From positions 27,716 through 91,715 of the forward strand of contig JAKQPK010000004.1 in the NCBI GenBank assembly GCA_029564765.1: DNA of 64,000 bases, written 5' to 3'. Within the stretch, counting starts at the first letter, position 1; each line of letters starts with the position of its first letter. The DNA is from Candidatus Omnitrophota bacterium (GTDB taxonomy: Bacteria; Omnitrophota; Gorgyraeia; Zapsychrales; Aceulaceae). The notes under the pieces are model-generated. The model did no database searches and was not told the origin of the DNA. It saw nothing but the letters and a program-made list of their open reading frames with translations. The translations under genes were made by a program, and so were the position numbers. Shown in pieces: positions 10,982 through 29,402 of the stretch.

Positions 10982-11042
10982 AATAAATAGTTTTTTATTG
11001 ACAATCTAGGATAGATATAATATTATCACACAAATTGCGGCA

Positions 11043-11078
11043 AGGACGTCCAATCGATGGGCGTCCTATTTTCTTTTT
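11043..11078 (+). terminator. intrinsic terminator-like hairpin (AGGACGTC...GGCGTCCT) plus T-tract
   Basis: 8-bp stem with one G-U pair and a 9-nt loop, followed by ATTTTCTTTTT. Lies 60 nt after PP-loop gene stop and after a promoter-like TTGACA(10998)-17-TATTAT(11021). Confidence 0.55.
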
Positions 11079-11133
11079 CAGGGATTCCGCTTTTTTTGTT
11101 AACCATATCTGCACAAAAAGTAGGCAAAAATCT

Positions 11134-11973
11134 ATGAAGATCCTTTCCAAAAGAACGCTTTTAGACAGTCCAGTATCAAAAATCGTTGAAATGAAGATCT
11201 TGTCTCCTGACATTGCGGCAAAAGCGCGTCCAGGGGAGTTCGTTGTTCTCATGGTCAGCGAGCAGGGTGAGCGCGTTCCATTGACCGTTGTTGATACCGA
11301 CCAAAGCCAAGGCTCGGTAACGATCATCTTTCAGCAGGCAGGCTTTAGCACAACTTTACTAGGATCAATGAACATCGGAGATTCTTTATACGCCTTTGTC
11401 GGACCGTTAGGGCATCCGACAGAGATAAAAAAATATGGGAAAGTTATCCTCGTTGGCGGTGGCGTCGGGATCGCAGAGATCTATCCTGTTGCGCGCGCGA
11501 TGAAAGAAGCCGGCAATCATGTTACGACTATCTTAGGCGCGCGGACAAAAGATATGCTGATCCTAGAACAGGAACTTAGGTCCGCCTCTCATGAATTGCA
11601 TGTTGCAACAGATGACGGTTCATATGGGCGGAAAGGTTTTACAGTCGACATCCTAAGAGATCTTCTAGTAAAAAGTCCCTACGATCTTGTTTATTCTGTT
11701 GGGCCGATCCCAATGATGAAGTTCACGGCACTAACGACACGTGAATTCAGTGTGAAGACCCTTGTTTCTCTGAACGCGATTATGATCGACGGGACAGGGA
11801 TGTGCGGTGGTTGCCGTGTGACAGTTGGCAATGAAGCGAAGTTTACTTGTGTTGATGGTCCTGAGTTTGATGCGCATCAGGTCGATTGGGCTGGATTGGA
11901 AAAACGAAATAAGGTTTACGCTCAAAAAGAACAGCATGCATGCCGTTTGGCAGCAGAAATGGCGAAGAAATGA
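11134..11973 (+). CDS. nfnA: PyrK-like FAD/NAD(P)-binding [2Fe-2S] subunit of NfnAB/SudAB-type oxidoreductase
   Basis: PyrK-like fold with C-terminal CGGCRV cluster motif. Paired with GltD-like subunit by an ATGA overlap. Start moved to MKILSKR (11134) because the track start at 11035 overlaps the hairpin. Confidence 0.75.
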   Translation: MKILSKRTLLDSPVSKIVEMKILSPDIAAKARPGEFVVLMVSEQGERVPLTVVDTDQSQGSVTIIFQQAGFSTTLLGSMNIGDSLYAFVGPLGHPTEIKKYGKVILVGGGVGIAEIYPVARAMKEAGNHVTTILGARTKDMLILEQELRSASHELHVATDDGSYGRKGFTVDILRDLLVKSPYDLVYSVGPIPMMKFTALTTREFSVKTLVSLNAIMIDGTGMCGGCRVTVGNEAKFTCVDGPEFDAHQVDWAGLEKRNKVYAQKEQHACRLAAEMAKK

Positions 11974-14819: not shown

Positions 14820-15791
14820 TTAAGCAAGAGACTGCTTAAAGTTTGTCAGTTGGCGTATGATCTCATCTGAGTCGTTTAGGGCGATCAGGCCCGCTCGTAA
14901 TCTTGCGATAAACGGAAAGCCGCTTAAGTATCCAGCATAGTGTTTTCGAAAATCTGCCACACCGGTACGCTTGCCTTTAAATTGAACGGATAATCGAAGA
15001 TGTTCGATGCATAGATCGATACGTTCTTGCATTGTTGCTTCGGATAAGTGTTGACCGGTTGATAGGAAGTGCTTTGTCTGCTGAAAGATCCATGGGTTAG
15101 AGATTGCGGCACGGCCGATCATGATGCCATCGCAGCCCATTTCGAAAAGAATTTTCGCGTGCTCAGGGGTTTTAATATCGCCATTAGCGATCAATGGGAT
15201 TGAGATGGTTTTTCGTATTTTTTCAAGCCATGACCAATCAGCATTTCCTCCGTAACCCTGCGAACGGGTACGACAATGGACGGTCAGGGCCTTGGCGCCT
15301 TGTGCTTCAACGATCTTGGCCACATCAAGGATGACAATGTTGTCGTGATCCCACCCTAGGCGTGTTTTAACCGTGACTGGAACCGTAACGGTCGCGACGA
15401 CTTTCTTGATAATGCGTTCAAGTTTCGGGATATTCTTAAGTAGTCCCGCGCCTTCACCTCGGGCGACAAGATTCCTGACCCAGCACCCGCAATTGATATC
15501 TATAAAGTCAGGGCGAATACTTTCTGCGATACGCGCGGCATTCGCCATTGTTTCTTCGTTGGAGCCAAAGATCTGCACGCCAATAGGGCGCTCTTCATCA
15601 CGGATCGAGATCTTATGAAAAGCAGTCTTGACGTTACGGATCAGTGCTTCACTACTAGTAAATTCAGTCACAAGGACATCAGCCCCTAGGCGTTTGCAGA
15701 TGAGGCGAAACGGGGTATCGCTAACATCTTCCATAGGAGCTAAAAAAACAGGATTATGTATTTCGATCTTGCCTATTTTCATAGGCGCCAT
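14820..15791 (-). CDS. dus: tRNA-dihydrouridine synthase
   Basis: IHNPVFLAPMEDVSDTPFRLICKRLGADVLVTEF N-terminal Dus signature. Confidence 0.85.
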   Translation of the reverse strand: MAPMKIGKIEIHNPVFLAPMEDVSDTPFRLICKRLGADVLVTEFTSSEALIRNVKTAFHKISIRDEERPIGVQIFGSNEETMANAARIAESIRPDFIDINCGCWVRNLVARGEGAGLLKNIPKLERIIKKVVATVTVPVTVKTRLGWDHDNIVILDVAKIVEAQGAKALTVHCRTRSQGYGGNADWSWLEKIRKTISIPLIANGDIKTPEHAKILFEMGCDGIMIGRAAISNPWIFQQTKHFLSTGQHLSEATMQERIDLCIEHLRLSVQFKGKRTGVADFRKHYAGYLSGFPFIARLRAGLIALNDSDEIIRQLTNFKQSLA

Positions 15792-15818
15792 TATATCTTA
15801 ATTTTTTTTCTGTGCATA

Positions 15819-15846
15819 TTGAATTGTCGCATTTTACCGTTATACT
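15819..15846 (+). promoter_or_regulatory. putative promoter TTGAAT-16-TATACT ending 6 nt before mtaB ATG
   Basis: Hexamers read directly. The spacing implies a leaderless or near-leaderless transcript. Confidence 0.35.
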
Positions 15847-15852
15847 ATAGGC

Positions 15853-17142
15853 ATGAATCAGAAAGTTAAATTTTATACGCTTGGATGCCGATCGAACCAG
15901 TCGGAAACAGCGGCCTTAAAAAATCTTTTTTTACAGAAAGGTTATGTTGTCGCGCCCGCAAATAATGCCGCGGACATTGCTGTCATTAACACTTGCACCG
16001 TCACAGAGCAAGGGGATCAGGACGCGCGCAAGCTTGTTCAACGGCTTCAGCGGGATAATCCAAAAATAAAGATCGCCTTGATCGGTTGTCAGGCCCAAAC
16101 GCAGAAAGAGGAATTAAAAAAGCTTCCCAACGTTCACTGGATCGTTGGTAATGCAGAAAAGATGAATTTGATCTCTTTGATCGAAGAACTGAAGCCTTTG
16201 CTACATGAACCTCATGTCCGTGTCGGACCTATAACGACCAAAAGTTTCACTATGCCAGCGGCTGCGATAGAGTCATCACGGACTCGCGCGAACTTAAAGG
16301 TTCAGGATGGCTGTGAGTCCTTTTGCGCGTATTGCGAAGTGCCTTTTGCTCGCGGCCCGGCGAGGAGTCGTGATTTTTGTGACATCCTCAAAGAGGCAGA
16401 GATCTTGGTATTGGCAGGGTATAAGGAAATTGTTTTGACTGGGATCAATATCGGCTCCTATTCAAACTCGGATAAAACATTATTGGACGTTGTCAAGAAG
16501 CTCGAGCTTATCCATGGCCTTGAGCGTATCCGCATTTCTTCTCTAGAGCCTAATGCAATTCCCGATGATCTCATTCTTTGGATGGGTACAAAGACAAAAT
16601 TATGTCGACACTTGCATGTTCCGATCCAAAGCGCGAGCGATAGGATATTGCAGATGATGGGGCGCAAATATACCGCAAGCATGCTGGAGACGTTTTTTGA
16701 ATTTGCTTCGCAGAATATTGACGATCTGTGTATCGGGGCTGATGTTATTGTTGGCTTTCCCGGGGAAAACGAGGATGATTTTATACAAACATATGAATTT
16801 CTTGCGGATAGCCCCATCGCATATTTTCATGTTTTCAGTTATTCAAACCGAAAACATGCGCGTAGCCGACATTTTTCTGGCCAGGTTGAAAAAACGATCA
16901 TTCAGCAAAGAAGCGAGATCCTGCATCAGTTGTCCTTAAGAAAAAAACAGATTTTTCTGGACCTTTTCATTGGCACAGTTCAGAAGGTCCTTTTTGAAGA
17001 ACAGAAGAAGGGTTTCTGGAAAGGGCTAACGGATAATTATTTACGGGTTCAAGTTCAATCAAAAGGTGATATGCGTAACCGTATTTGTTCCGTAGAGATT
17101 TATGAACGGCAGGGTGATATCCTGATCGGTAAAATGGTCTAA
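15853..17142 (+). CDS. MiaB-family radical SAM methylthiotransferase (MtaB-like)
   Basis: KFYTLGCRSNQSE N-terminal MTTase domain, CAYC radical SAM motif. No obvious long TRAM extension. Confidence 0.75.
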   Translation: MNQKVKFYTLGCRSNQSETAALKNLFLQKGYVVAPANNAADIAVINTCTVTEQGDQDARKLVQRLQRDNPKIKIALIGCQAQTQKEELKKLPNVHWIVGNAEKMNLISLIEELKPLLHEPHVRVGPITTKSFTMPAAAIESSRTRANLKVQDGCESFCAYCEVPFARGPARSRDFCDILKEAEILVLAGYKEIVLTGINIGSYSNSDKTLLDVVKKLELIHGLERIRISSLEPNAIPDDLILWMGTKTKLCRHLHVPIQSASDRILQMMGRKYTASMLETFFEFASQNIDDLCIGADVIVGFPGENEDDFIQTYEFLADSPIAYFHVFSYSNRKHARSRHFSGQVEKTIIQQRSEILHQLSLRKKQIFLDLFIGTVQKVLFEEQKKGFWKGLTDNYLRVQVQSKGDMRNRICSVEIYERQGDILIGKMV

Positions 17143-17165
17143 ATTATTTTCTAATAGAGGGTTAT

Positions 17166-17642
17166 ATGAATAATAATGATATAAAATTTATGCAATTGGC
17201 GCTTAAAAAAGCTTATCAAGGTGTTCGCCAAGGCCAAACTCCATTTGGCGCTTGCATTGTTCGAAAAAATAAAGTAATAGCGTTAGCCCATAACCGTGTC
17301 TGGAAGACAACTGATATTACTGCCCACGCGGAAGTGGATGCTATCCGTAAGGCTTGTAAAAAGTTAAGAACGGTTGATCTTTCTGGTTGCACCATCTATT
17401 CTACGTGTGAGCCCTGTCCAATGTGCTTTTCGGCTTGTCATTGGGCAAGGATCGATCGTATTGTTTTTGGCGCGACGATATCGGATGCGAAACGCTATGG
17501 ATTCAACGAGTTATGTGTCTCAACGGATCACTTGAAAAGAAGAGGGAGAACATCTGTTGTTCTACGCGGTAAAGTTTTGATCCGAGAAAATCGATCGCTT
17601 TTTTGTTTCTGGCATAAAAAGCATGGCCAAAAGACATATTAG
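17166..17642 (+). CDS. CMP/dCMP-type zinc deaminase (tRNA adenosine deaminase TadA-like)
   Basis: HAEVDAIRKA and CEPCPMC zinc-binding motifs. Confidence 0.75.
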   Translation: MNNNDIKFMQLALKKAYQGVRQGQTPFGACIVRKNKVIALAHNRVWKTTDITAHAEVDAIRKACKKLRTVDLSGCTIYSTCEPCPMCFSACHWARIDRIVFGATISDAKRYGFNELCVSTDHLKRRGRTSVVLRGKVLIRENRSLFCFWHKKHGQKTY

Positions 17643-17683
17643 CCGTTGACCACTCATTATTTCTTGCCTACCTTAAATTTTCG

Positions 17684-17712
17684 TTGACATTTCTCGTAAA
17701 CAGGGATATTAT
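17684..17712 (+). promoter_or_regulatory. sigma70-like promoter TTGACA-17-TATTAT upstream of glycogen cluster
   Basis: Read directly. About 110-nt leader, then AAAGGAGGT RBS and ATG at 17824. Confidence 0.5.
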
Positions 17713-17823
17713 ACAAAATCGTTTCTAACCTCAGACAGTTTATTGACTTACGATATTTATAGAATGTGCATTCTTTGTGGAGTCTTGAATTCGATAAGAA
17801 ATCTACTTAAAGGAGGTCCCGCC

Positions 17824-18135
17824 ATGGACAAAAAGAGTAAAAAAGAAACAAAAGCTTGCTGCAGCAAGATAAAAACAAAAAAGATCGTTTTTCAACTCAA
17901 TGCCGCATCCGCTGCGAACGTTGTTTTAACAGGGGATTTTAACGCCTGGAGCAAAGAAGGCGTTAAGATGAAAAAAGACAAGGCTGGTATCTGGAAGAAT
18001 GAGATCGATCTTGCCCCTGGCCGCTATGAGTACAAGTTCGTTGTCGACGGAAAATGGTGGACAGATCCCGCAAACACCCGCACAGCGATCAATTCTTTTG
18101 GCGATGTTAATTCTGTGATCGAGGTTACAGCCTAA
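17824..18135 (+). CDS. stand-alone CBM48/AMPK-beta-like glycogen-binding domain protein
   Basis: VLTGDFNAWS...GRYEYKFVVDGKWWTDP matches the CBM48 early-set glycogen-binding signature. Start moved to MDKKSKK after a strong SD. Confidence 0.65.
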   Translation: MDKKSKKETKACCSKIKTKKIVFQLNAASAANVVLTGDFNAWSKEGVKMKKDKAGIWKNEIDLAPGRYEYKFVVDGKWWTDPANTRTAINSFGDVNSVIEVTA

Positions 18136-19295
18136 TGCGCATTGCGCTTCTTGCGTGGGAGTCTTTGCACTCCATTCACGTAGGCGGTATCGGCAATCAT
18201 ATTACAGAGCTTGGCTGTGCCCTTGAGCGCAAAGGACATGAAGTTCACGTCTTTACACGCTTAGGCCAAGCTCAACAGCCGTGGTATGAGAAGATCCACG
18301 GCGTTCATTATCATCGTTGCCCATTCGCATCGCATCCTGACTTTATTGAAGAAGTCAATAACATGTGTCGGGCATTTGTTGATGCGGTTTTTCAAACAGA
18401 AAATTATATTGGTGCTTTTGATATCGTTCACGCGCATGATTGGCTGACTGCTAATGCGTTAGCTTGGATCAAAGAAGGGCGTGGGCGCAAAGCCATTTTT
18501 ACTATACACTCGACAGAATATGGGCGCTGTGGGAATAATTTCTTTGGCGGGAATTCTGAGCGTATCCGTCATCTAGAGTGGTATGGAACATACTGCGCGG
18601 ATCATGTTGTGGCTGTTTCTCGCGCGTTAAAAAATGAGACCATGTGGACGTATAGCGTTCCTGATGGGAAGATCGATGTCATTTACAATGGGATCAATGC
18701 GTATAATTATGATGGCTGGATAGATCCCGCCGGTGTTCGTCGGCAGTACGGTATTGGCCCGGTTGATCCGATGGTCCTTTTCGTCGGCCGTATCGTTTAC
18801 CAAAAAGGGCCGGATCTGCTCGTTGATGCTATTCCGCATATCTTAAAGTTCCATCCGAACACCAAGTTCGTTTTTGCTGGGGATGGGGAGATGCGTTGGA
18901 GCATTGAGGAGCAATCAAGACGTGTCGGGGTGCATCACGCGTTAAGATTCCTTGGTTTTACAAGCGGTTGGCGCCTGGTCGATCTTTTTAAGGCAACGGA
19001 TATTGTCTGTGTCCCAAGTCGCAACGAACCTTTCGGCATCGTTCTTTTGGAAGCCTGGAGCGCTGGCAAGCCTGTTGTTGCTAGTTCATCCGGAGGCCCC
19101 GGTGAGATCATCTGGCACGAGGTCAATGGCCTTAAGGTCTATCCGAACCCTGATTCTATCGCATGGGGAGTAGGGACATGTTTTTCAGATTTTGATTATA
19201 CTCGCTGGATGGGTCGCAATGGCCGCGTGGCCGCTGAAACAGTGTTTTCGTGGGATGTTATCGCTGACGAAGTTTTAACCGTTTACCATATGTAG
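18135..19295 (+). CDS. retaining glycosyltransferase, glycogen/alpha-glucan synthase-like (GT4/GT5)
   Basis: MRIALLAWESLHSIHVGGIGNHITEL N-terminus and C-terminal EPFGIVLLEAWSAGKPVV (E-x7-E) motif. TAATG overlap with preceding gene. Confidence 0.6.
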   Translation: MRIALLAWESLHSIHVGGIGNHITELGCALERKGHEVHVFTRLGQAQQPWYEKIHGVHYHRCPFASHPDFIEEVNNMCRAFVDAVFQTENYIGAFDIVHAHDWLTANALAWIKEGRGRKAIFTIHSTEYGRCGNNFFGGNSERIRHLEWYGTYCADHVVAVSRALKNETMWTYSVPDGKIDVIYNGINAYNYDGWIDPAGVRRQYGIGPVDPMVLFVGRIVYQKGPDLLVDAIPHILKFHPNTKFVFAGDGEMRWSIEEQSRRVGVHHALRFLGFTSGWRLVDLFKATDIVCVPSRNEPFGIVLLEAWSAGKPVVASSSGGPGEIIWHEVNGLKVYPNPDSIAWGVGTCFSDFDYTRWMGRNGRVAAETVFSWDVIADEVLTVYHM

Positions 19296-19298
19296 ATC

Positions 19299-20576
19299 AT
19301 GGCGAAACTAAAAACAAAAATATCCGATAAAAAAAATCCGCGGACAAACCGTCTATCGACAACTGCGCAAACAGCTCCTTCATCATTTGTCTTGCAGCAA
19401 CCACCGCTTCAAAATCTGAACTATCAGCCGATCGGCTCTTCTGAATATCATTGTGGCACTTGGCAGAACGCTGTATCTCCTGAGCGAAATCTACAGGCCA
19501 ACAACGAATACATTCCTGTTCAGCCGCCAAAATTACGAAAATCGATCGACCTTAATGATTCTACATTGCCTGATCTCTCGCAAGCAACACGTTTGCGGTT
19601 AATGGCGCGCGATCCCCATTGGATCCACGCGTATTGGCATGTTTCTCCTTCAGCGATCGATGATGCGCAAAGGGTTTTGGGAGGACATTTTAAGCAGTCG
19701 CGTTATGTGTTGCGGATGCATGACATAACCAGTGTTCATTTTAATGGACGCAATGCCAATCGATCTTTTGATATTGAAGTTGATCTAGGTTCAAAGAGCT
19801 GGTATGTGGATACCTGGCAAGACAACGCTAGCTATTGTGCGCAGATCGGCTTAAAAACATCGCAAGGGGAATTTTATCAATTTGCGGAATCAAACCCCAT
19901 TCATACGCCTCGCTCAAGCTTTTCGGATCGCGGTGATCTTATATGGTTAGATGTCAAGCCAGAATCAAGCAAGATGCCGTTCATCTTAGTAGATACGAGC
20001 GGTAAGCGAAGACGTAGCGGCCGGATCCGATGGTATTTAACCGAGGACGATATTCGCGCGTACTACTCCAAATTATTCCCGATACTGCGAAAGATCCTTG
20101 CGGGAAAAATAGGTTTGCGTAAACGACTAGCGCGTCTTCTTGGAAAACATGTTGAAGGGGATGACGATTTACTGCTTAGCCTTCATAATAATGCCTGGAT
20201 CCGAAAAATGCTATTAGGCGCTTCCGAAGAATTGCTTGAGCAGGGAGAAGGCACGGCAAAAGCTCTTGACATTAATGGATCAGTGACGTCCTGGGGAGGG
20301 TCAAGCGAGCGTATTTCAAAACAACGTAAATTCTTTTTTGAGCTCGCTACAGAATTGATCGTGTACGGGCGAACTGAGCCAGACGCACATGTGTTGCACG
20401 GTTCAAAACATGTTCCTTTGCGGCCAGACGGAACGTTCAGTATGCGATTTGCCCTTGCGGATGACGGATTCATTCCTCTTGATTTTAAGGCCATTTCTAG
20501 CGATAAGATCGAGATCCGCAAGATCCTGACATCCGCAAAGCGCGCAAAAACGAACTACCAAACTGAAATTTCCTAA
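19299..20576 (+). CDS. conserved hypothetical protein inside the glycogen cluster
   Basis: 425 aa with W/H-rich DPHWIHAYWHVSP segment and no recognisable catalytic motif. Confidence 0.5.
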   Translation: MAKLKTKISDKKNPRTNRLSTTAQTAPSSFVLQQPPLQNLNYQPIGSSEYHCGTWQNAVSPERNLQANNEYIPVQPPKLRKSIDLNDSTLPDLSQATRLRLMARDPHWIHAYWHVSPSAIDDAQRVLGGHFKQSRYVLRMHDITSVHFNGRNANRSFDIEVDLGSKSWYVDTWQDNASYCAQIGLKTSQGEFYQFAESNPIHTPRSSFSDRGDLIWLDVKPESSKMPFILVDTSGKRRRSGRIRWYLTEDDIRAYYSKLFPILRKILAGKIGLRKRLARLLGKHVEGDDDLLLSLHNNAWIRKMLLGASEELLEQGEGTAKALDINGSVTSWGGSSERISKQRKFFFELATELIVYGRTEPDAHVLHGSKHVPLRPDGTFSMRFALADDGFIPLDFKAISSDKIEIRKILTSAKRAKTNYQTEIS

Positions 20577-20589
20577 ACGAGACTCATGA

Positions 20590-22278
20590 ATGCTTAAAGG
20601 GTACGTTTGTCTTCTGCTTCACACGCACCTGCCGTTTGTCCGCCACCCGGAAGAAGAGAATTTCCTTGAAGAAAGCTGGCTCTATGAAGCGATTACCGAA
20701 ACATACATCCCGCTGATCCAGATTTTTGATCAGCTCATCAAAGATGGTGTTGATTTTCGCATCACGATGTCCTTGACGCCCCCACTAGCGTCAATGCTCC
20801 AGGATCCGCTGCTACAAAATCGTTATATTCGCCATCTTAATAAGCTTATCGAATTGTCCGAGAAAGAGATCGAGCGAACAGCTTACGACAAGCTTTATCA
20901 TGGGCTTGCATTGATGTATCACCGAAAGTTCTTAGAGGCCAAAGATGTTTTTGTAAATCAATATCATCGTGATCTTGTCCGTGCGTTCAAAAGATTCCAA
21001 GATCTTGGATTTGTCGAGATCATCGCCTCAGCAGCAACACATGGTTTTTTACCCAATCTACAGGTCAATCCTAGCAGTGTCCATGCGCAGATCAAGATTG
21101 GCGTCGATCACTACAAAAAAACATTTGGTTGCCAACCAAAAGGATTTTGGCTTCCAGAATGCGCGTATTTTCCAGGCGTTGATAATGTGCTCAAGGAAGC
21201 AGGTATTCGCTATTTTATCGTTGATTCTCACGGCATCCTGCACGCGGACCCTCGCCCTAAATACAGCGTCTATGCACCATTATTTTGTCCGTCGGGAGTT
21301 GCCGCTTTTGGCCGCGACTGGGAGTCTTCAAAGCAGGTTTGGAGCGCCAAAGAAGGTTATCCTGGAGACGTCGATTACCGTGAATACTATCGAGATATCG
21401 GTTTCGAGCTTGATTATGATTATATCAAGCCATATATTCATCAGCTTGGTTTCCGAACAAATACAGGTATTAAGTATTGGCGTATCACCGGCAATACGGA
21501 ATACAAAGAGGTTTATCGCCCGGATTGGGCGCGCGAAAAAGCAGCGTCCCACGCGGGTAACTTTATGTTTAACCGCGAAAAACAGGTCGAGCATTTATCC
21601 GCGCACATGGACCGAAAACCTTTGATCCTGGCGCCTTACGATGCTGAACTTTTTGGCCATTGGTGGTACGAAGGGCCAATGTGGATCGATTTCTTAATGC
21701 GCAAAGTGGCCTTTGATCAAAAAACGATTAAATTCATAACACCAGGTGAGTACCTAACCCTTTATCCGACGAATCAGATGGCCATGCCTTCCGCATCGAC
21801 ATGGGGCTGGAAAGGGCACAATGAGTTCTGGCTTGAAGGCTCGAATGACTGGATCTATCCGCATCTGCACATGGCAGCAGAGCAAATGACGGAACTTGCG
21901 AAGAAATTTTCAGAACACATCGAGCGTCAACCAAAAAAGAAAACGTTGCTGCAGCGCGCGCTCAATCAAGCGGTACGCGAACTTGTTCTTGCCGAATCAA
22001 GCGATTGGCCATTTATCATGAAGACGAACACCATGGTCCCTTATGCGCATAAACGCGTTAAACAGCATCTTAATCGCTTTGGAAAGCTGCGAGAAGATAT
22101 CCTTAACGGCACGATCGATCCTGACTGGCTGACAGAAGTCGAATGGCGAGATAACATTTTTTCAGATATGGATTGCGCGGTATATTATCTGCTGCAGAAA
22201 AAAATAAAGGTAGTCAAAAAGAAAACCTGCACTAAAAAAATTCAACTTAAAAAAAGGAAGAAAAAAGCCTATGCCTAA
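20590..22278 (+). CDS. GH57 family 1,4-alpha-glucan branching enzyme
   Basis: N-terminal LLHTHLPFVRHP (GH57 region I HxHLP). Length and C-terminal helical domain fit GH57 branching enzymes. Unusual Lys-rich C-terminal tail. Confidence 0.75.
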   Translation: MLKGYVCLLLHTHLPFVRHPEEENFLEESWLYEAITETYIPLIQIFDQLIKDGVDFRITMSLTPPLASMLQDPLLQNRYIRHLNKLIELSEKEIERTAYDKLYHGLALMYHRKFLEAKDVFVNQYHRDLVRAFKRFQDLGFVEIIASAATHGFLPNLQVNPSSVHAQIKIGVDHYKKTFGCQPKGFWLPECAYFPGVDNVLKEAGIRYFIVDSHGILHADPRPKYSVYAPLFCPSGVAAFGRDWESSKQVWSAKEGYPGDVDYREYYRDIGFELDYDYIKPYIHQLGFRTNTGIKYWRITGNTEYKEVYRPDWAREKAASHAGNFMFNREKQVEHLSAHMDRKPLILAPYDAELFGHWWYEGPMWIDFLMRKVAFDQKTIKFITPGEYLTLYPTNQMAMPSASTWGWKGHNEFWLEGSNDWIYPHLHMAAEQMTELAKKFSEHIERQPKKKTLLQRALNQAVRELVLAESSDWPFIMKTNTMVPYAHKRVKQHLNRFGKLREDILNGTIDPDWLTEVEWRDNIFSDMDCAVYYLLQKKIKVVKKKTCTKKIQLKKRKKKAYA

Positions 22279-23716
22279 TATTCCAGAGATCAAAGGTGAA
22301 TTTCCGGATATCACTGTTGTTTCTTCTGATGATCGTTCGCTGGGGTCTTCCTTAGAACCTCTTTACGCGCCGTTTTCAAGCATCCATTGGCCTTCTGTCA
22401 GATCTTCGTTCGGCATCGCGCTTCATATGCATCAGCCGACCATTCCAGCAGAAACAGATGATGTGCGCAATGCGCGCCTGATCTCTAATTTGCAGCATAT
22501 GATGGAACATCAGCACACAGGGGACAACCACAATGCTCCTGTTTTTTTGAATTGCTATTCGCGCATGTCCGATATCATTCGCGAGTTGGCCGCTGCTGGT
22601 CAGAATCCAAGGGTTATGTTGGATTATTCTGGGAATTTACTATGGGGATTTAAGCAAATGGGTGAGGGGCGTGTCCTCGATAACCTTGCCCTGGTCACCT
22701 GTGATAAAAAGTATTATGCGCACGTTGAATGGCTTGGCACTACGTGGTCTCACGCGGTCGCTAGTTCAACGCCGATACCGGACATCAAGCTTCATGTGCT
22801 AGCCTGGCGAAAACATTTTGCGTCGATCTTCGGCAAAGAGGCTCTCAAGCGCGTGAAAGGTTTCTCCGCGCCGGAAATGCATTTGCCGATCCATCCAGAT
22901 GTTTGTTATGAATATCTCAAGGCGCTTAATGAATGCGGTTATCAGTGGCTAATGGTCCAAGAGCATACGATCGAAAATATGGATGGGAGTGGTATCCGAC
23001 GCCCTCATTTTCCGCATCGCCTTATCGCCCGAAATTCAAAAGGGGATGTTCAAGAGATGACCGTTCTGATCAAGACTCAGGGCTCTGACACAAAGCTGGT
23101 CGCTCAAATGCAACCTTATTATGAAGCAAAAACATTATCACCGCAGGAGTACGCTGGGATCGTTATCCCTGCGTATGTCGCTCAGATCGGCGATGGAGAG
23201 AATGGCGGTGTGATGATGAATGAATTTCCTCCGGGATATCGTCAAGCCTTTGCCGAGATTGGCCGCGAAGGAACGGTCGCAATGAATGGGTCTGAGTACC
23301 TGGAATTCATTTATGGCCTTGGCGCTCAAGAAAAGAAATTCATCCCTGTCCAACCGCGAGGACAAAAACGTATCTGGGATACTGTTGGCAGTGCTCTTGG
23401 CCCTGGTGCTTGTGATCACGCGATCGATGAGATCAAGAAAAGTGATCCCGGCTTTAATCTTGATAAAGGCTCTTGGACTAGTGATCGCGACTGGGTTAAA
23501 GGGTATGAAAGCGTCCTCGATCCTATTAATCAGTTAAGCGCGAGATTTCATCAAGTGTTCGACCCGGCCAAGGTGTCCACAGCTAATCCAAAATATAAAA
23601 ACGCTTTGCTTTATTTGTTGCTTTCACAAACAAGCTGTTTTCGTTATTGGGGAGAAGGCTTGTGGACAGAGTACGCTCGCGAGATCTGTCGTCGAGGTTT
23701 TGATACGCTTGCGTGA
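22271..23716 (+). CDS. second GH57 family glycoside hydrolase
   Basis: ALHMHQP motif near N-terminus (HxHQP of GH57). Confidence 0.55.
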   Translation: MPNIPEIKGEFPDITVVSSDDRSLGSSLEPLYAPFSSIHWPSVRSSFGIALHMHQPTIPAETDDVRNARLISNLQHMMEHQHTGDNHNAPVFLNCYSRMSDIIRELAAAGQNPRVMLDYSGNLLWGFKQMGEGRVLDNLALVTCDKKYYAHVEWLGTTWSHAVASSTPIPDIKLHVLAWRKHFASIFGKEALKRVKGFSAPEMHLPIHPDVCYEYLKALNECGYQWLMVQEHTIENMDGSGIRRPHFPHRLIARNSKGDVQEMTVLIKTQGSDTKLVAQMQPYYEAKTLSPQEYAGIVIPAYVAQIGDGENGGVMMNEFPPGYRQAFAEIGREGTVAMNGSEYLEFIYGLGAQEKKFIPVQPRGQKRIWDTVGSALGPGACDHAIDEIKKSDPGFNLDKGSWTSDRDWVKGYESVLDPINQLSARFHQVFDPAKVSTANPKYKNALLYLLLSQTSCFRYWGEGLWTEYAREICRRGFDTLA

Positions 23717-23719
23717 ACT

Positions 23720-24352
23720 ATGCAGACGATCCTTAAGCGCCTTGGCCAAAAGGACCGCCAGGCGATCCGTCAAGTCCTAAACATTTACCATGATGTTGAT
23801 AAAGAAACTCTGCGATTTGCCCGTCGGACGCATATTTCTTGCCCGCCGCGGTGCGGTCTGTGCTGTCAAAGCCCAAAGGTCGAGGCAAGCGTCCTTGAAA
23901 TGTTACCGCTGGCGGTAAAACTGTGGTCTGAAGAAAAAGGCATGTCATGCCTTGAGAATATTGAAAAAAAGCATGCGCAAAAACGTTGTTTCTTTTTCGA
24001 TCCTGATCCGCACAATGCTTTTCAAGGCCGCTGTGGCGCATATCAATGGCGGCCTTTGATCTGCCGCTTGTTCGGATTTTCTTTAAATAAAAATAAATAT
24101 GGGTCCTATGCTTACAGCGGGTGCAAAACTATTAACCATGCTTTGGCTGAAGGGCATTTTGATCTAACGAAATTGACCCAATCGAAAATTCCTCTTACGA
24201 CTATGGCGAATTTTACCATGCGCCTTTCGGGGATCAGTACCTCAAGATACGACACCAAACCTCTCGCTATCAACATGGCGATTAAATTTGCGTTAGAAAA
24301 AATTGGATTTGAACTGGAAAAACACCAGTGGAAATGTAGAATAAAGCAGTAG
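23720..24352 (+). CDS. YkgJ-family cysteine-cluster protein (CxxCxxCC)
   Basis: CPPRCGLCCQS motif and C-terminal CGAYQWRPLICRLFG. Confidence 0.55.
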   Translation: MQTILKRLGQKDRQAIRQVLNIYHDVDKETLRFARRTHISCPPRCGLCCQSPKVEASVLEMLPLAVKLWSEEKGMSCLENIEKKHAQKRCFFFDPDPHNAFQGRCGAYQWRPLICRLFGFSLNKNKYGSYAYSGCKTINHALAEGHFDLTKLTQSKIPLTTMANFTMRLSGISTSRYDTKPLAINMAIKFALEKIGFELEKHQWKCRIKQ

Positions 24353-24362
24353 AGAGGATCCT

Positions 24363-24980
24363 ATGAAACGATTTCTGGCCCACCTTAAAACATACATGTT
24401 TCGCGGTATTTTAGCCGCCATCCCGATCGTGTTATCCTACATCGTCCTTCGTTTTTTGTACCTGACGATCGACAAGCGTGTTGTTATCCTGGTCGATCAC
24501 TATTTTGGCCTTATTATCCCAGGGATAGGCATTGTGGCGTTCTTGATATTGCTATATTTCTTGGGATTACTGGCAAGTAATTTTATTGGTCGTCGGTTTT
24601 TTAGTCTTATTGAGCATATTGCCAACCGGATCCCGATCGTTAGTTCGACGTATAAGATCGGAAAACAGATCTCCTCAACTTTTTCACTGCCAGAAAAAGA
24701 GATCTTTAAAAAAGCTGTTTTACTTGAACACTTCTCAAAAGATGTTTGGACCATTGGATTTGTGACGGGGACGATCTTTGACGCGGCGACAAACGAAAAG
24801 CTCTATAAAGTTTTCGTCCCAACAGTTCCCAATCCCACGTCCGGCTTTATTGCCATCGTGAAAGAATCTCAAGTGCGTGATCCAGGCTGGTCCGTTGAAG
24901 AAGGCTTAAAAGCAGTTATATCCGCAGGGATCATTAGCCCTGCGCAGGTCTTAAGCCCTCCACAGAAAACAATTTTATGA
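24363..24980 (+). CDS. DUF502 family membrane protein
   Basis: Two N-terminal TM segments followed by RRFFSLIEHIANRIPIVSSTYKIGKQ, the DUF502 signature. Confidence 0.6.
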   Translation: MKRFLAHLKTYMFRGILAAIPIVLSYIVLRFLYLTIDKRVVILVDHYFGLIIPGIGIVAFLILLYFLGLLASNFIGRRFFSLIEHIANRIPIVSSTYKIGKQISSTFSLPEKEIFKKAVLLEHFSKDVWTIGFVTGTIFDAATNEKLYKVFVPTVPNPTSGFIAIVKESQVRDPGWSVEEGLKAVISAGIISPAQVLSPPQKTIL

Positions 24981-25330
24981 ACCGCATTCTTCTCACATGC
25001 CTGATGCTTACGGCCAGCAATGTCTTTATGACATTCGCATGGTATGCGCACCTTAAGAATCTCAGTGCGCGGCCATGGTTCTATGCCGCTATGTTTAGCT
25101 GGGGGATAGCGTTTTTTGAGTATATCATTCAAGTTCCCGCGAATCGCATAGGCCATCAAACGATGAGCCTAGGACAGCTAAAGATCTTGCAAGAAGTGAT
25201 CACTTTGTCTGTCTTCATCCCATTCGCGATCTTTTACATGAAAGAAGACCTGAAGTTGGATTATTTGTGGGCTGCTCTGTGCATTTGCGCCGCGGCATTC
25301 TTTATTTTTCGTTCCAAAGGCATTGGCTAA
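24977..25330 (+). CDS. small DMT-superfamily membrane protein (DUF486-like)
   Basis: 117 aa, four predicted TM helices. Confidence 0.5.
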   Translation: MNRILLTCLMLTASNVFMTFAWYAHLKNLSARPWFYAAMFSWGIAFFEYIIQVPANRIGHQTMSLGQLKILQEVITLSVFIPFAIFYMKEDLKLDYLWAALCICAAAFFIFRSKGIG

Positions 25331-25429
25331 TTGTTTTACGGCCGATCTTCTCAACAACTTCTTGCCTCCTAAACACTGAACGAATAAAAATAGAAATATA
25401 TTTGCGTATTTTTTAATGCATTGGATAAT

Positions 25430-26830
25430 ATGAGTATGTTTCTTAAGAGAATCCTACGAAGTCGCTTGATCAATTATAATCCGGAAGCGCTCATTCTTTT
25501 GAGTTTTATGACGGCTATCCTGATCGGCACGTTTTTGCTTAAATTGCCTATTTCGGTCCAAAACGGCCAGACGCTGTCCTGGGTAAACGCGTTCTTTACC
25601 GCAACATCCGCCACCTGCATTACAGGGTTAGGCGTTATAGATATTGGAACAGGCTTATCTTTTTTTGGTCAAATCGTTGTTTTGGTCCTGATCCAGATCG
25701 GTGGCTTAGGCATTATGACGTTATCATTGCTATTCTTAATGCTGCTTCGCCGCCGCTCATCTCTGACAACACGCTCATGCCTGATGTCATTATCCAACGA
25801 GATCGATATCAAAAGTATCCGCGGGGCGGTCTTAAAGATCCTTTCCTTCACGTTAACGATCGAATTGATCGGCGCAGGACTTCTTTTTCTTTACTTGCGA
25901 AATTATCATCCGACCCAGACGGCTATTTACAGTTCTGTGTTCCATTCGATCTCTGCGTTTTGTAACGCTGGGTTTAGCATTTACAAGGAAAATTTTCTTG
26001 TGTTCCAACGTGTTCCATATGTCCAGATCATTGCGATGGTATTAGCGATCATCGGAGGGATCGGGTTTGTCGTGATCAGTGATTTCTTTCATGTCTTTGC
26101 GCCTAAAAAGAACGGCCAGCGAAAAACACTTAGTTCCCATAGCAAAATGGCTCTCATTGGCAGCGGTTTTCTGATCGTACTAGGAGCGCTCGTGATATGG
26201 TCCTTCGAGCGCAGCGAGCAGCTATCCGCTATGCCATTATGGGACCAGATCATGAACGCGCTGTTTTTGTCGAGCGCTTCACGAACCGTTGGCTTTAATG
26301 CTCTTGATATTTCTTTACTGTCGAATGCGACATTATTCTTTGTTGTGATCCTTATGTTCATCGGCGGCTCTCCAGGGTCAACGGCAGGAGGTGTCAAGGT
26401 CAACACGGTTTTTGTGCTGCTTTGTTTTGTTGTCAGCCAGGTTAAAGGGTCCACGAGCACAAACTTTTTAAAACGCAAGATCCCTAATGATATCGTTCAT
26501 AAGGCTGCGGCGATCATTTTGATCTCGCTTGTTTTTGTTGTGCTGTCGGTCTTTGTTTTACAGGTTACGGAAAGCATTGATGATCCAGCGCGCTACGGAG
26601 GCAATAACCAGAATTTTCTGATCCTTGTTTTTGAAGCTGTATCAGCCCTTGGGACTGTGGGGCTTTCCATGGGAGTAACACAAACACTTTCGACCCATGG
26701 AAAACTGATCATCATTTTGCTGATGTATATCGGTCGCGTCGGGCCGCTCACTCTTGCTTTCGCCTTACAGAGATTATCGACGCGGCCAGCTAAATATGAA
26801 CACCCTGAAGAAGATATTTTTATTGGATAA
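25430..26830 (+). CDS. trkH: TrkH/KtrB family potassium transporter
   Basis: Repeated pore-loop motifs (TATSATCITGLGV, CNAGFS, SRTVGFN, LGTVGLSMG). Start moved to ATG at 25430. Confidence 0.85.
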   Translation: MSMFLKRILRSRLINYNPEALILLSFMTAILIGTFLLKLPISVQNGQTLSWVNAFFTATSATCITGLGVIDIGTGLSFFGQIVVLVLIQIGGLGIMTLSLLFLMLLRRRSSLTTRSCLMSLSNEIDIKSIRGAVLKILSFTLTIELIGAGLLFLYLRNYHPTQTAIYSSVFHSISAFCNAGFSIYKENFLVFQRVPYVQIIAMVLAIIGGIGFVVISDFFHVFAPKKNGQRKTLSSHSKMALIGSGFLIVLGALVIWSFERSEQLSAMPLWDQIMNALFLSSASRTVGFNALDISLLSNATLFFVVILMFIGGSPGSTAGGVKVNTVFVLLCFVVSQVKGSTSTNFLKRKIPNDIVHKAAAIILISLVFVVLSVFVLQVTESIDDPARYGGNNQNFLILVFEAVSALGTVGLSMGVTQTLSTHGKLIIILLMYIGRVGPLTLAFALQRLSTRPAKYEHPEEDIFIG

Positions 26831-26841
26831 AAGGAGGATGT

Positions 26842-27498
26842 ATGAACGCACGTAGCGCGCTTATTATCGGGTTAGGGCAGTTTGGGTCCACGCTGGTAGA
26901 AGATCTTTCGAAAAAAGGCTGGGAGCTGATCGTTATTGATAGCGATCCAGAGAAAGCCCAACACGTCAAAGACCGCGTCAGCCAGGTTATCATTGCGGAT
27001 GCCGCGAACCGAGAGATCCTGCAAAAATTTGCAACACAAGCAGAGATGACCATTGTCTGTTCCGGTGAAAAGATCGACAATAGCGTTCTTATCACGTATT
27101 ACCTGAAGGATATTGGTATCAAACGGATCTTAGCGAAGGCATCCAGCAGGGAGCACGGAGAGATCCTACGCGCGGTTGGCGCGGATCAGATATTGTTCCC
27201 AGAGCGCGAGACTGCGCAGCGCTTAGCCCTGAACCTGACTTCGCCTGATATTATGGAGGTCATTAAGCTGTCTGATAATTTTGACATTGTTGAAGCTTCT
27301 ATCCCCGATAGTTTTATCGGAAAAACGATCAAAGAATTAGCTTTACGTAATAAATATCAGATCGATGTTCTCGCGATCAAGAACGCGTTAACCGGCAATT
27401 TGATCATCATGCCGCCCGCCGAGCACAAATTTAGTCCAGATGACATCATGATCATCATCGGAGGGATCGACTCTATTGAGAAGTTCAACATCCGATGA
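26842..27498 (+). CDS. trkA: TrkA/KtrA potassium uptake regulatory subunit
   Basis: IIGLGQFGSTL Rossmann motif plus C-terminal TrkA_C-like region. Confidence 0.85.
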   Translation: MNARSALIIGLGQFGSTLVEDLSKKGWELIVIDSDPEKAQHVKDRVSQVIIADAANREILQKFATQAEMTIVCSGEKIDNSVLITYYLKDIGIKRILAKASSREHGEILRAVGADQILFPERETAQRLALNLTSPDIMEVIKLSDNFDIVEASIPDSFIGKTIKELALRNKYQIDVLAIKNALTGNLIIMPPAEHKFSPDDIMIIIGGIDSIEKFNIR

Positions 27499-27613
27499 TC
27501 CACGATTTGGCAAGATCACCAACATAAATGCTTACCGTAGCAAGCAAACATCAACGACGCATGTCGCGTGCGCCCAAGATCCATAAAAATTATTGTTATC
27601 AGAGGGTCTCTGT

Positions 27614-27630
27614 GCTATAGTTCATATAGC
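27614..27630. promoter_or_regulatory. palindrome GCTATA-gttca-TATAGC, candidate MarR operator
   Basis: Perfect 6-bp inverted repeat with 5-bp spacer, 40 nt upstream of marR ATG. Confidence 0.35.
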
Positions 27631-27670
27631 AAATAGTTAGGGAAGCTAATCATTCTCAAAGGAGTCCAGC

Positions 27671-28123
27671 ATGGCCCTCACATTAGAACGATACGCGGAA
27701 GCAGTTCTCGAGATCTTTCCGGTGATCATCCGCGAGTTCTTGCGTCAACCCAATATGAAGGTTGCCAAGATCCCCTTGACGGTCCCACAGCTGTTCATTA
27801 TGGACTATCTCTATCGCCATGACAGATCAAAGATGAAGGATTTGGCCGGTTTTATGAACGTCACAATGGCCACCATGACAGGGATCGTCGATCGGCTTGT
27901 TAGGGATGGCTATGCGGCCCGGACCGTCGACGCTAATGACCGGCGTGTTGTCAGCATTGTTTTATCAGCTAAGGGAATGGCTTTGGCTAAAAAGATCCAC
28001 CAGATCCGCCGTGAAGGGATCATGCATCTTTTTCAGAAAATCTCAATGAAGGATCGCGCGAACTACCTTAAGATCCTATCATTGATCCGTGATGCATGTC
28101 AAAAAGGCACGAATGAGAAATAA
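27671..28123 (+). CDS. MarR family transcriptional regulator
   Basis: LTVPQLFIMDYLY...LVRDGYAARTVDANDRRVVSIVLSAKG winged-helix MarR signature. Confidence 0.85.
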   Translation: MALTLERYAEAVLEIFPVIIREFLRQPNMKVAKIPLTVPQLFIMDYLYRHDRSKMKDLAGFMNVTMATMTGIVDRLVRDGYAARTVDANDRRVVSIVLSAKGMALAKKIHQIRREGIMHLFQKISMKDRANYLKILSLIRDACQKGTNEK

Positions 28124-29402
28124 AACCCAAGATACTGCCATCATTATTCTTTTCTATTTTCTTACCATTTTTTGCTGCCCACCGCCCAGCGCGTTCGCAG
28201 AAGAGCTTGTGCTGACCCTTGATGAGGCGATCACGCTTGCTTTACGGGATAATCGATCCATACGCTTACAAGCGCAGGATGTCGCGCGCATCAAAGCTCA
28301 GCTCGCAAGTGATAAAAGCGAGCTTTGGCCAACGTTGACCTTTGCCGGTACACAGCAGTACGATAAAGGATACTATCCCGCGGACATGAGCTCGACGATC
28401 ACGCAGACATCGATCCGTCAATACCTTTACAAGGGAGGCTCGATCACGAACCAGATCGAGAAAACAAAATATGATATGCAAGCCGCACAAGCGATCACGA
28501 CCAAGGCGCGGCATGAGATCATTTTAACCGTTACGAAAACTTTTTGCGCGACACTGCTAGCCCAAGAATACGCGCGCCTTAATAAAGCGATCGCAGACAA
28601 TACGCAGCAACATCTAGAATTTATTTCTGCTCGCTATCAAAAAGGGTTGGCGTCCGAGAATGATATTCTTCGGCTTAAGAACTCTTTGGAAAACGTCGCT
28701 GTGGTCTATTATGAATCGCTCGATCAGATCAGCTCGCTAAAAGCGATCCTCCGCAATGCGCTCTATCTTGAAAACGACATTGCTTTATCCCTGACAGGAG
28801 CCCTCGCGTACGAGCCAAGGGATTTTCTTTACGATGAGAGTTTCTTAGAGGCTTTGGCAAGCCGTCCTGAGATTAAAGAATTTGAGGCCCGTGAGAGATC
28901 CGGTATCAAAGCGATCGAGATCGCGAAAGCAGATGGACGTCCAACGATCCATGCCTCTTGGGATTACTACAGCCGTTCGCATATCCTTTCAACAGCATCA
29001 AAGAATTGGAACGACAACATGGTGATCGGTGTAACATTCTCTTGGCCTGTCTTTGACGGCTGGGGCACGAAAGCAAAGGTGGACCAAGCGATCACGGATC
29101 TCAAGCAAGTACAGCTCTTAAAGGAAAAAACGATCAAAGATATCGCGCTGGAACTTAAACAAGCGTATCTTATTCTAAAGGGTTCAATGTCACGGCTCCA
29201 AGCTGTCGAAGCGGAGCTTGTCTGGTATGAAAATTCGATCAAAAAGGTCGTCGCGCAATACGAAAAAGGGGAAGCAAGCCAGCTTGATCTTTCGGACGCG
29301 CAGATAGGCCGGGATATTTCGATCTTTAAAAAGACCCAAGCGGTCTATGATTACCTGATCGCTCATGCTGATTTTCTTAAGGCCACCGGAGGATTACAAT
29401 GA
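28089..29402 (+). CDS. TolC-family outer membrane efflux protein
   Basis: Signal peptide then two OEP-like helical repeats. True start may be MRNK at 28113, overlapping the marR stop. Confidence 0.75.
   Translation: MMHVKKARMRNKTQDTAIIILFYFLTIFCCPPPSAFAEELVLTLDEAITLALRDNRSIRLQAQDVARIKAQLASDKSELWPTLTFAGTQQYDKGYYPADMSSTITQTSIRQYLYKGGSITNQIEKTKYDMQAAQAITTKARHEIILTVTKTFCATLLAQEYARLNKAIADNTQQHLEFISARYQKGLASENDILRLKNSLENVAVVYYESLDQISSLKAILRNALYLENDIALSLTGALAYEPRDFLYDESFLEALASRPEIKEFEARERSGIKAIEIAKADGRPTIHASWDYYSRSHILSTASKNWNDNMVIGVTFSWPVFDGWGTKAKVDQAITDLKQVQLLKEKTIKDIALELKQAYLILKGSMSRLQAVEAELVWYENSIKKVVAQYEKGEASQLDLSDAQIGRDISIFKKTQAVYDYLIAHADFLKATGGLQ

Follow-up and report, generated by a model that had tools for sequence, protein, structure and literature searches.

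In the classical glycogen operon, GlgC, a GT5-type GlgA and a GH13-type GlgB are encoded together with GlgP and GlgX. Other described systems place a GT4-type glycosyltransferase gene next to a gene for a GH57 enzyme of branching type, as with mycobacterial Rv3032 and Rv3031 and with the archaeal GT4 genes that lie among GH57 genes (PMC2674218, PMC11046441). GT4 genes nested in this way have been proposed to encode uncharacterised glycogen synthases (PMC11046441), a review holds that the role of archaeal GT4 genes adjoining GH57 genes still needs clarification (PMC11046441), and most GH57 'branching enzymes' branch poorly (PMC10346327). Here we describe a cluster that shares the GT4-GH57 arrangement, in a 64,000-nt stretch of the genome of a Candidatus Omnitrophota bacterium (assembly GCA_029564765.1, contig JAKQPK010000004.1, positions 27,716 to 91,715), hereafter the window, whose own numbering is used throughout. 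Its five genes, at 17824-23716 on the + strand, encode a stand-alone CBM48 protein, a GT4-type glycosyltransferase, a DUF4912 protein and two GH57 enzymes designated ORF4 and ORF5, the latter divergent. We favour the reading that they form a non-classical cytoplasmic operon for the synthesis and remodelling of a glycogen-like alpha-glucan, to which, including the roles proposed below for each product, we assign a probability of about 0.55.

The product would be of the same kind as that of the classical operon, a cytoplasmic store with alpha-1,4 and alpha-1,6 linkages, and each of the two clusters pairs a synthase gene with one for a branching-type enzyme. However, the window has a GT4-like synthase and GH57 enzymes in place of GH13, and adds CBM48, DUF4912 and a second GH57. 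No GlgX was found in the window, and no GlgC, GlgP, GH13 or GlgE among the 20 other window open reading frames (ORFs) scanned, a set that includes all but one of those of at least 400 aa. These family scans bear out the first-pass annotation, made from the sequence alone, in which the locus was taken for a GH57-based alpha-glucan cluster in a window with no GlgC and no classical GlgB or GlgX; a classical GlgA is likewise absent. The mycobacterial cluster for methylglucose lipopolysaccharide (MGLP), Rv3030-Rv3037c, has S-adenosylmethionine (SAM) methyltransferases and an acetyltransferase (PMC2674218), none of which is present at 17166-25330 of the window; conversely, DUF4912, ORF5 and CBM48 are not described in the mycobacterial or archaeal GT4-GH57 clusters (PMC11046441, PMC2674218). 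The cluster fits neither the classical GlgCAB operon, nor the GlgM/GlgE route, nor the MGLP cluster. It is a system of an ordinary kind, for alpha-glucan metabolism, in an uncharacterised and well-conserved variant.

Organization and conservation of the cluster

The five ORFs are co-directional and tightly packed: a TAATG joins the first two, gaps of 3 and 13 nt come next, and the last two overlap by 8 nt. The gene for the 103-aa CBM48 protein (17824..18135) is closed by the TAATG that contains the start codon of the translationally coupled GT4 gene (18135..19295, 386 aa); the DUF4912 gene (19299..20576, 425 aa), ORF4 (20590..22278, 562 aa) and the overlapping ORF5 (22271..23716, 481 aa) follow. 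A putative sigma-70-like promoter on the + strand, TTGACA-17-TATTAT (17684..17712), agrees with the consensus at 11 of 12 positions and is the top-scoring such site in 15500-28500, as a consensus match only; two related loci, L084 and L085 (L numbers denote the loci fetched for comparison), carry a TTGACA promoter-like site at the equivalent position. As read from the sequence, a Shine-Dalgarno (SD) element, AAGGAGG (17810..17816, + strand), lies 7 nt 5' of the CBM48 ATG, and a scan of the + strand within the array detected no strong site resembling an intrinsic terminator. The five ORFs, the promoter-like site, the SD element and the coupling were thereby confirmed as first annotated. The N-terminal sequences of all five proteins contain no signal peptide or transmembrane segment, which argues for a cytoplasmic system and polymer. 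For every gene of the cluster, the best homologues are from Omnitrophota.

To describe conservation we used 17 Omnitrophota-type genome loci, anchored on ORF5 and with at least 5 kb of upstream sequence. The series GT4-DUF4912-GH57-ORF5 recurs in the same order in 16 of them, indicating that the cluster is not a chance arrangement, and the module was also found in Chitinivibrionales (L001), Acidobacteriota (L046, L052) and Gemmataceae of the Planctomycetota (L071). The DUF4912 gene lies between GT4 and GH57 in 16/16 conserved loci and is an obligate member of the module. The enzymes are thus accompanied by two non-catalytic beta-sandwich proteins, DUF4912 and CBM48.

Relatives vary at the 3' end of the cluster. 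A GH13 GlgB (CBM48, alpha-amylase and C-domain) lies 3' of ORF5 in four of the 17 loci, and cluster-borne GlgB genes for products of 642-684 aa were located at L019:11560-13488, L020:11665-13629, L023:4200-6134, L028:11537-13483, L060:4212-6266 and L008:2869-4872; GH57 and GH13 branching-type enzymes therefore coexist in some relatives. A third GH57 gene (~387 aa; PF03065, E=6.7e-32) occurs between ORF5 and a gene for a CxxCxxCC protein at L004:3766-4929 and L084:13877-15037. It is absent from the window, where only 3 nt separate these two genes.

The GT4-type glycosyltransferase

The second gene encodes a retaining, glucan-synthase-like glycosyltransferase of GT4 type, which matches the Pfam families Glycos_transf_1, Glyco_transf_4 and Glyco_transf_5, with GT-B group-1/GT4 domains, as well as the starch-synthase N-domain PF08323. 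Among the NCBIfam models it scores highest with glgA_Coryne (TIGR02149), at 149.9 bits against a cut-off of 302.4; the GT5 glgA model TIGR02095 scores 92.4 bits (cut-off 328.45), and the NF0019xx GlgA equivalogs are all far below cut-off. The enzyme had been introduced as 'GT4/GT5 glucan-synthase-like', of which the GT4 type and the synthase-like domains stand, the GT5 GlgA models remaining below cut-off. Its PDB neighbours at similar scores are MshA, BshA, GlgM (6tvp) and GlgA of P. abyssi, and we infer its reading as a glucan synthase from gene context. Orthologues 57-75% identical were found in Omnitrophota, Acidobacteriota, Chitinivibrionales, Gemmataceae and a Verrucomicrobia-labelled metagenome-assembled genome (MAG), a level of conservation that would be expected of a core enzyme.

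The two GH57 enzymes

ORF4 joins a GH57 domain (PF03065, 131.8 bits) to the branching-enzyme C-domain BE_C (PF09210, 121.5 bits). The closest PDB entry is AmyC/TmGBE57 of T. maritima (2b5d; E=5.7e-155), in a full-length and nearly gap-free alignment, and five structures of GH57 glycogen branching enzymes (GBEs) are matched at E<=7e-69. The 'true' Tk, Ph and Tt GBEs have a flexible loop of 17-20 aa with a conserved Tyr, plus two beta-strands (PMC10346327). Aligned with these enzymes (5wu7, 3n8t, 1ufa), ORF4 shows gaps at both insertions, which AmyC likewise lacks, and this places ORF4 in the large (~92%) loop-less group. Loop-less enzymes branch at 10.5 mU/mg, as compared with 480-550 for the T. 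kodakarensis enzyme, and hydrolysis and alpha-1,4-transglycosylation are relatively high in the AmyC type (PMC10346327). The earlier name, GH57 branching enzyme, is thus supported by the GH57 and BE_C domains, but ORF4 lacks the Tyr loop of the strong branching enzymes.

Unlike AmyC, ORF4 extends into a Lys-rich tail of ~30 aa (22190-22278; KKKIKVVKKKTCTKKIQLKKRKKKAYA), beyond AmyC homology, and its partners GT4, DUF4912, ORF5 and CBM48 do not figure in the descriptions of AmyC found. Lys-rich tails were considered as a shared targeting signal of the cluster proteins, an idea we dropped because only some relatives (L010, L093, L014) have a basic GH57 tail.

ORF5 had no match in Pfam, NCBIfam or the PDB with its own sequence, PF03065 not appearing even at E<=1, and a PDB search with a profile of 51 family sequences gave no significant match either, so that its assignment needed a structure model. 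The AlphaFold2 model (predicted local distance difference test, pLDDT, 87.6; predicted template-modelling score, pTM, 0.91) retrieved in Foldseek, at the top, the GH57 4-alpha-glucanotransferase 1k1x (E=1.6e-11), followed by an amylopullulanase, a GBE and a maltose-forming amylase; 1k1x, 7e1y, 5wu7 and 4cmr were all matched at probability 1.00, with the clan relative GH38 interleaved from rank 6. The predicted fold is the (beta/alpha)7-barrel of GH57. In agreement with this, 23 of the 51 family members match PF03065, among them two proteins 75-77% identical to ORF5 (P0002 and P0005; 34 and 28 bits, cut-off 21.2, residues 49-233). The fold and these homologues uphold the initial call of a second GH57 enzyme.

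Three motifs of ORF5 are invariant in the 51 homologues: H52/H54/Q55/P56 (HxHQP), E202 (SAPEMH) and D308-G-E310-N. In an hhalign comparison, E202 fell on the nucleophile Glu of the WLPE motif of GH57 GBE, in a weak match (E=0.0047) covering conserved regions 2-3 only, and D308 (IGDGEN) is a candidate acid/base by motif resemblance only. The family is unusually conserved: there are >8000 matches, the best 120 of which are 64-86% identical, and mean column identity in the 51-sequence alignment is 73%. Homologues 53-57% identical occur as lone genes in cyanobacteria, including Nostoc, Synechocystis salina and Oscillatoria (L035-L083, match at ~10001-11460), and no informative conserved partner was found among their neighbours.

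The DUF4912 protein

The 425-aa protein had been left unclassified and of unknown function; a Pfam profile assigns it to DUF4912 (PF16258, residues 96-211, 112.5 bits against a cut-off of 29.4, E=1.8e-32). In its AlphaFold model, built on an 85-sequence alignment, the N-terminus is basic and disordered. Two beta domains are modelled with confidence, a sandwich into which a helix is inserted (~95-205) and another at ~350-415, and the helical stretch between them has low confidence. The DUF4912 domain is predicted to adopt an FN3-like fold. In Chitinivibrionales (L001) and Gemmataceae (L071), which represent two phyla, DUF4912 is fused to a GT4 enzyme; it is DUF4912, not CBM48, that was found joined to such an enzyme. 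We rejected the notion that the fused GT4 is the orthologue of the GT4 in the window, because it is a paralogue of 28-30% identity that adjoins the true orthologue. Mentions of DUF4912 in the literature searched were all unrelated.

A CBM48 protein related to the AMPK beta domain

The 103-aa protein encoded by the first gene consists of a basic tail (residues 1-19) and a CBM48 domain of AMPK-beta type (residues ~20-103), and contains no coiled-coil or other synthase-binding domain. It matches Pfam AMPK1_CBM (PF16561; 57.9 bits, cut-off 26.8, E=1.2e-15) and CBM_48 (PF02922; 40.3 bits, cut-off 22.4, E=4e-10), and the domain aligns over its whole length (residues 22-101; E=7e-9) with the glycogen-binding domain of AMPK beta1 (1z0n), the nearest solved structure by sequence. 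In this alignment, W100, K126, W133, G147 and N150 of beta1 correspond to W42, K71, W78, G93 and N96, which are invariant among 53 CBM48 homologues except for K71, which is nearly so. In AMPK, binding to glycogen is lost with the substitutions W100G and K126Q and reduced with W133L and G147R (PMC6274970). Judged by these residues the domain looks functional, and the protein is, as first proposed, a genuine CBM48. The AMPK domain, however, is part of a scaffold subunit of a eukaryotic kinase, whereas the protein in the window is bacterial and stands alone.

That the protein might instead be a fragment of a disrupted larger gene is ruled out by the length of its homologues and by their divergence. 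All 117 homologues retrieved through a word index are 61-181 aa long, and the 18 closest are 99-109 aa long and 66-99% identical. The ratio of non-synonymous to synonymous substitution (dN/dS) is 0.08-0.15 relative to L084-L086, with dS partly saturated, and the gene thus appears to be under purifying selection.

The N-terminal tail (17824-17885, residues 1-20) contains a conserved Cys cluster, KACCSK, with C-x3-4-CC or C-x-C counterparts in L084-L086, and a K/R-rich tail or linker is present in every GT4-linked CBM48.

Non-enzymatic AMPK1_CBM/CBM48 proteins that are tied genetically to a glucan synthase are also known from plants, as PTST1 and FLO6 (PMC6322578, PMC13475482). PTST1 is non-catalytic and targets a starch synthase (PMC6322578). 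It is ~26 kDa in size and has a coiled-coil that binds the GT5 synthase GBSS, whereas the 103 aa encoded in the window comprise only tail and CBM48, next to a GT4. The resemblance would be one of concept, without the coiled-coil, and in the window the link to the synthase is one of gene adjacency and TAATG coupling.

A free-standing CBM48 had been regarded as unusual, a view that our searches do not sustain. NCBI names such small proteins 'glycogen-binding domain-containing protein' or 'isoamylase early set domain-containing protein'. A metagenome pattern scan gave at least 571 confirmed relatives, which are small ORFs in most of the 80 loci fetched. A profile search gave 21,568 matches at E<=1e-3 among 1.84 billion cluster representatives, a figure that measures family size and not the stand-alone fraction, the top matches listed being multi-repeat proteins. 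Many proteins carry 3-20 tandem copies of an AMPK-beta-like CBM48 (P0358-P0507), among them a large group of ~480 aa with four copies and giants of 5000-7400 aa.

What is specific to this system is a sub-clade of CBM48 directly upstream of GT4. A GT4 gene lies directly 3' of the CBM48 gene in 16 of the 17 closest metagenomic loci, the spacing in linked loci ranging from an overlap to ~100 nt and being mostly <40 nt, and all GT4-linked CBM48s form one clade, apart from small CBM48s of other contexts, in a neighbour-joining (NJ) tree of ~85 residues without support values. As for the co-occurrence of free CBM48 with GH57, a small CBM48 gene, or one fused as described below, heads the cluster in 8 of the 17 Omnitrophota-type genome loci, but not in the other nine. 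CBM48 is thus an accessory gene at the head of the cluster, carried by about half of the Omnitrophota clusters and always directly before GT4. An apparent mutual exclusion between the small CBM48 and a downstream GH13 GlgB (0/8 versus 4/9) was dropped because L008 has both GlgB and a CBM48 fusion, and the numbers are small.

HTH-CBM48 fusions and a possible regulatory role

Among the ~30 GT4-linked loci, 10-11 encode, at the same position directly upstream of GT4, a protein of 156-185 aa in which an N-terminal XRE-type helix-turn-helix (HTH) domain, HTH_3, is fused to AMPK1_CBM. They were located at L008:5313-5810, L013:5237-5737, L014:189-692, L021:5477-5947, L025:5210-5752, L087:497-1006, L088:442-966, L089:7758-8312, L094:40-594 and L095:68-538. 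Pfam detects HTH_3 at 6.5e-18 and AMPK1_CBM at 7e-17 in the L008 fusion, and HTH_3 at 1.1e-14 in that of L013, with AMPK1_CBM similar to the L008 value. We found no description of an HTH-CBM48 protein in the literature searched. In close relatives, this glucan-binding module has become coupled by evolution to a DNA-binding domain as well as to enzymes.

Nine of 10 fusion genes contain a strong internal AAGGAGG or GGAGG 5-8 nt 5' of an in-frame ATG. This ATG lies 23-28 codons 5' of the GDF motif, roughly where solo genes start; the CBM48 start in the window is 36 codons 5' of the motif. The internal signal could be either the fossil of a gene fusion or a device for making a long and a short product. 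In addition, a conserved promoter/operator-like element, TTGACA-(A)AGTTAAC-N-TGTGnCATAAT, has six matches in 3.7 Mb of fetched loci (L014:128, L021:5388, L087:370, L089:7682, L090:7682 and L095:10, all on the + strand), every one of them 58-127 nt upstream of an HTH-CBM48 ORF.

Both these fusions and the joining of DUF4912, rather than CBM48, to a GT4 enzyme complicate the earlier suggestion that CBM48 may be a scaffold or primer-binding subunit for the synthase. The HTH fusions suggest glucan sensing or regulation no less than a synthase scaffold, and make a sensing or regulatory role a strong rival to the one we favour for CBM48, the tethering of glucan for GT4 or for the enzyme set. CBM48 would then be mainly regulatory, the sensing half of a glucan-responsive XRE repressor circuit, with the HTH domain lost in the window or supplied in trans and the solo form competing for glucan ends and so modulating expression or activity. 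Consistent with this are the position of the fusions, the retention of the internal SD and ATG, the restriction of the operator-like element to fusion genes and the nesting of the solo clade of the window among HTH-fused forms in the NJ tree; furthermore, AMPK beta shows that this type of CBM can sense glycogen (PMC2642990). The protein in the window, however, has no DNA-binding domain, the 27 in-frame codons upstream of its ORF have no HTH match, its promoter lacks the GTTAAC/TGTGnCA part of the element, no XRE gene adjoins the cluster, and a regulator need not be translationally coupled to an enzyme gene; the tree, moreover, is subject to the limits given above. On balance, we consider a mainly regulatory CBM48 rather doubtful for this genome.

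Neighbouring genes

Three further + strand genes follow the cluster: one for a CxxCxxCC protein (Pfam PF03692, 23720-24352) after the 3-nt gap, one for a DUF502 membrane protein (Pfam PF04367, 24363-24980) after a gap of 10 nt, and one for a 117-aa membrane protein (24977-25330) at -4 nt relative to the DUF502 gene. The genes down to 25330 may share the operon transcript. The CxxCxxCC-DUF502 pair is probably not part of the core, because among the relatives only the closest, L004 and L084, have it after the cluster. A CxxCxxCC (PF03692) gene also lies 3' of ORF5 in an Oscillatoriales cyanobacterium (L076:9370-9957), which may be a coincidence. Elsewhere in the window, a 604-aa ORF (2792-4606, - strand) has no Pfam match at E<=1e-5.

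Discussion

In the synthesis and remodelling operon that we favour, GT4 would elongate alpha-1,4 chains from a nucleoside diphosphate (NDP)-glucose donor, and ORF4 would add alpha-1,6 branches and reshuffle chains, its enzyme type branching weakly. ORF5, with both putative catalytic residues kept, would trim or disproportionate chains in the manner of an amylase or a 4-alpha-glucanotransferase. CBM48 would bind the glucan and bring a partner to it, in the window most likely the co-translated GT4 or a granule-bound enzyme set, and in sister lineages the fused XRE DNA-binding domain. The DUF4912 protein may be a second non-catalytic beta-sandwich that binds glucan or a partner, alongside the GT4/GH57 machinery.

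Several points weigh against this assignment. We infer every enzymatic step from family and context, the observations themselves being of family membership, conservation, linkage and conserved residues. Homology does not fix the donor and acceptor of GT4, because the protein lies below every NCBIfam equivalog cut-off, and branching in this genome is not secured, because the AmyC type branches poorly and some relatives add a GH13 GlgB. Neither GlgC nor a phosphorylase was found among the window ORFs scanned. As to the helper proteins, half of the clusters work without a CBM48 gene, CBM48 has no obvious protein-interaction domain, and the HTH fusions suggest that it may sense or regulate rather than target. 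The fusions link DUF4912 to GT4-type transferases generally rather than to this enzyme in particular, since the GT4 to which it is fused is a paralogue.

A more far-reaching proposal, unlikely when taken as a whole, is that the four core genes (GT4, DUF4912, AmyC-type GH57 and the 480-aa GH57) make up a distinct multi-phylum route to a glycogen-like polymer. DUF4912 would then serve GT4-type synthases as an obligate subunit for glucan binding or priming, and CBM48 would be a bacterial glycogen sensor, made either alone or as a two-start XRE-HTH fusion that keeps the operon repressed until titrated away by glucan.

We think it very improbable that the cluster serves a GlgM/GlgE-like or other oligosaccharide pathway, in which GT4 would make maltose-1-phosphate or a glucosyl-primer and one GH57 would polymerise or branch it, as Rv3032 and Rv3031 do for MGLP. 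The best NCBIfam model of GT4, glgA_Coryne, is of GlgM type and GlgM itself (6tvp) is among the top PDB matches, GT4 and GH57 genes are also adjacent in the MGLP cluster (PMC2674218), and ~32% of annotated GlgA homologues are GT4 enzymes, many of them really GlgM (PMC11046441). However, the TIGR02149 score is only about half the cut-off (150 versus 302), MshA and BshA score as well as GlgM, and neither the cluster nor the 20 other ORFs scanned include GlgE (GH13_3), TreS/Mak, a methyltransferase or an acyltransferase; homologues of ORF5, furthermore, occur alone in cyanobacteria, which use GlgA. A chiefly catabolic cluster, in which the GH57s would act as amylases on imported maltodextrin or starch inside the cell and CBM48 would capture the substrate, would suit the hydrolysis and alpha-1,4-transfer of AmyC-type enzymes, high relative to their branching (PMC10346327), and the amylopullulanase and maltose-forming amylase among the nearest folds of ORF5, but is quite unlikely given a synthase-like GT4 that is 57-75% identical across phyla and a fixed member of the module, a cluster with no sugar transporter, phosphorylase or secretion signal, and Omnitrophota MAGs inferred to synthesise glycogen (PMC8542988).

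The locus offers a concrete candidate module for the question raised by GT4 genes next to GH57 genes, with four core genes and an accessory gene, in several phyla. Experimental work on the two helper proteins and on the HTH-CBM48 relatives would be worthwhile. Should CBM48 and HTH-CBM48 couple glucan binding to gene control, the sensing of glycogen by AMPK beta would have an equivalent in bacteria; if there is no such coupling, the locus would be the Omnitrophota version of a storage-polysaccharide operon.

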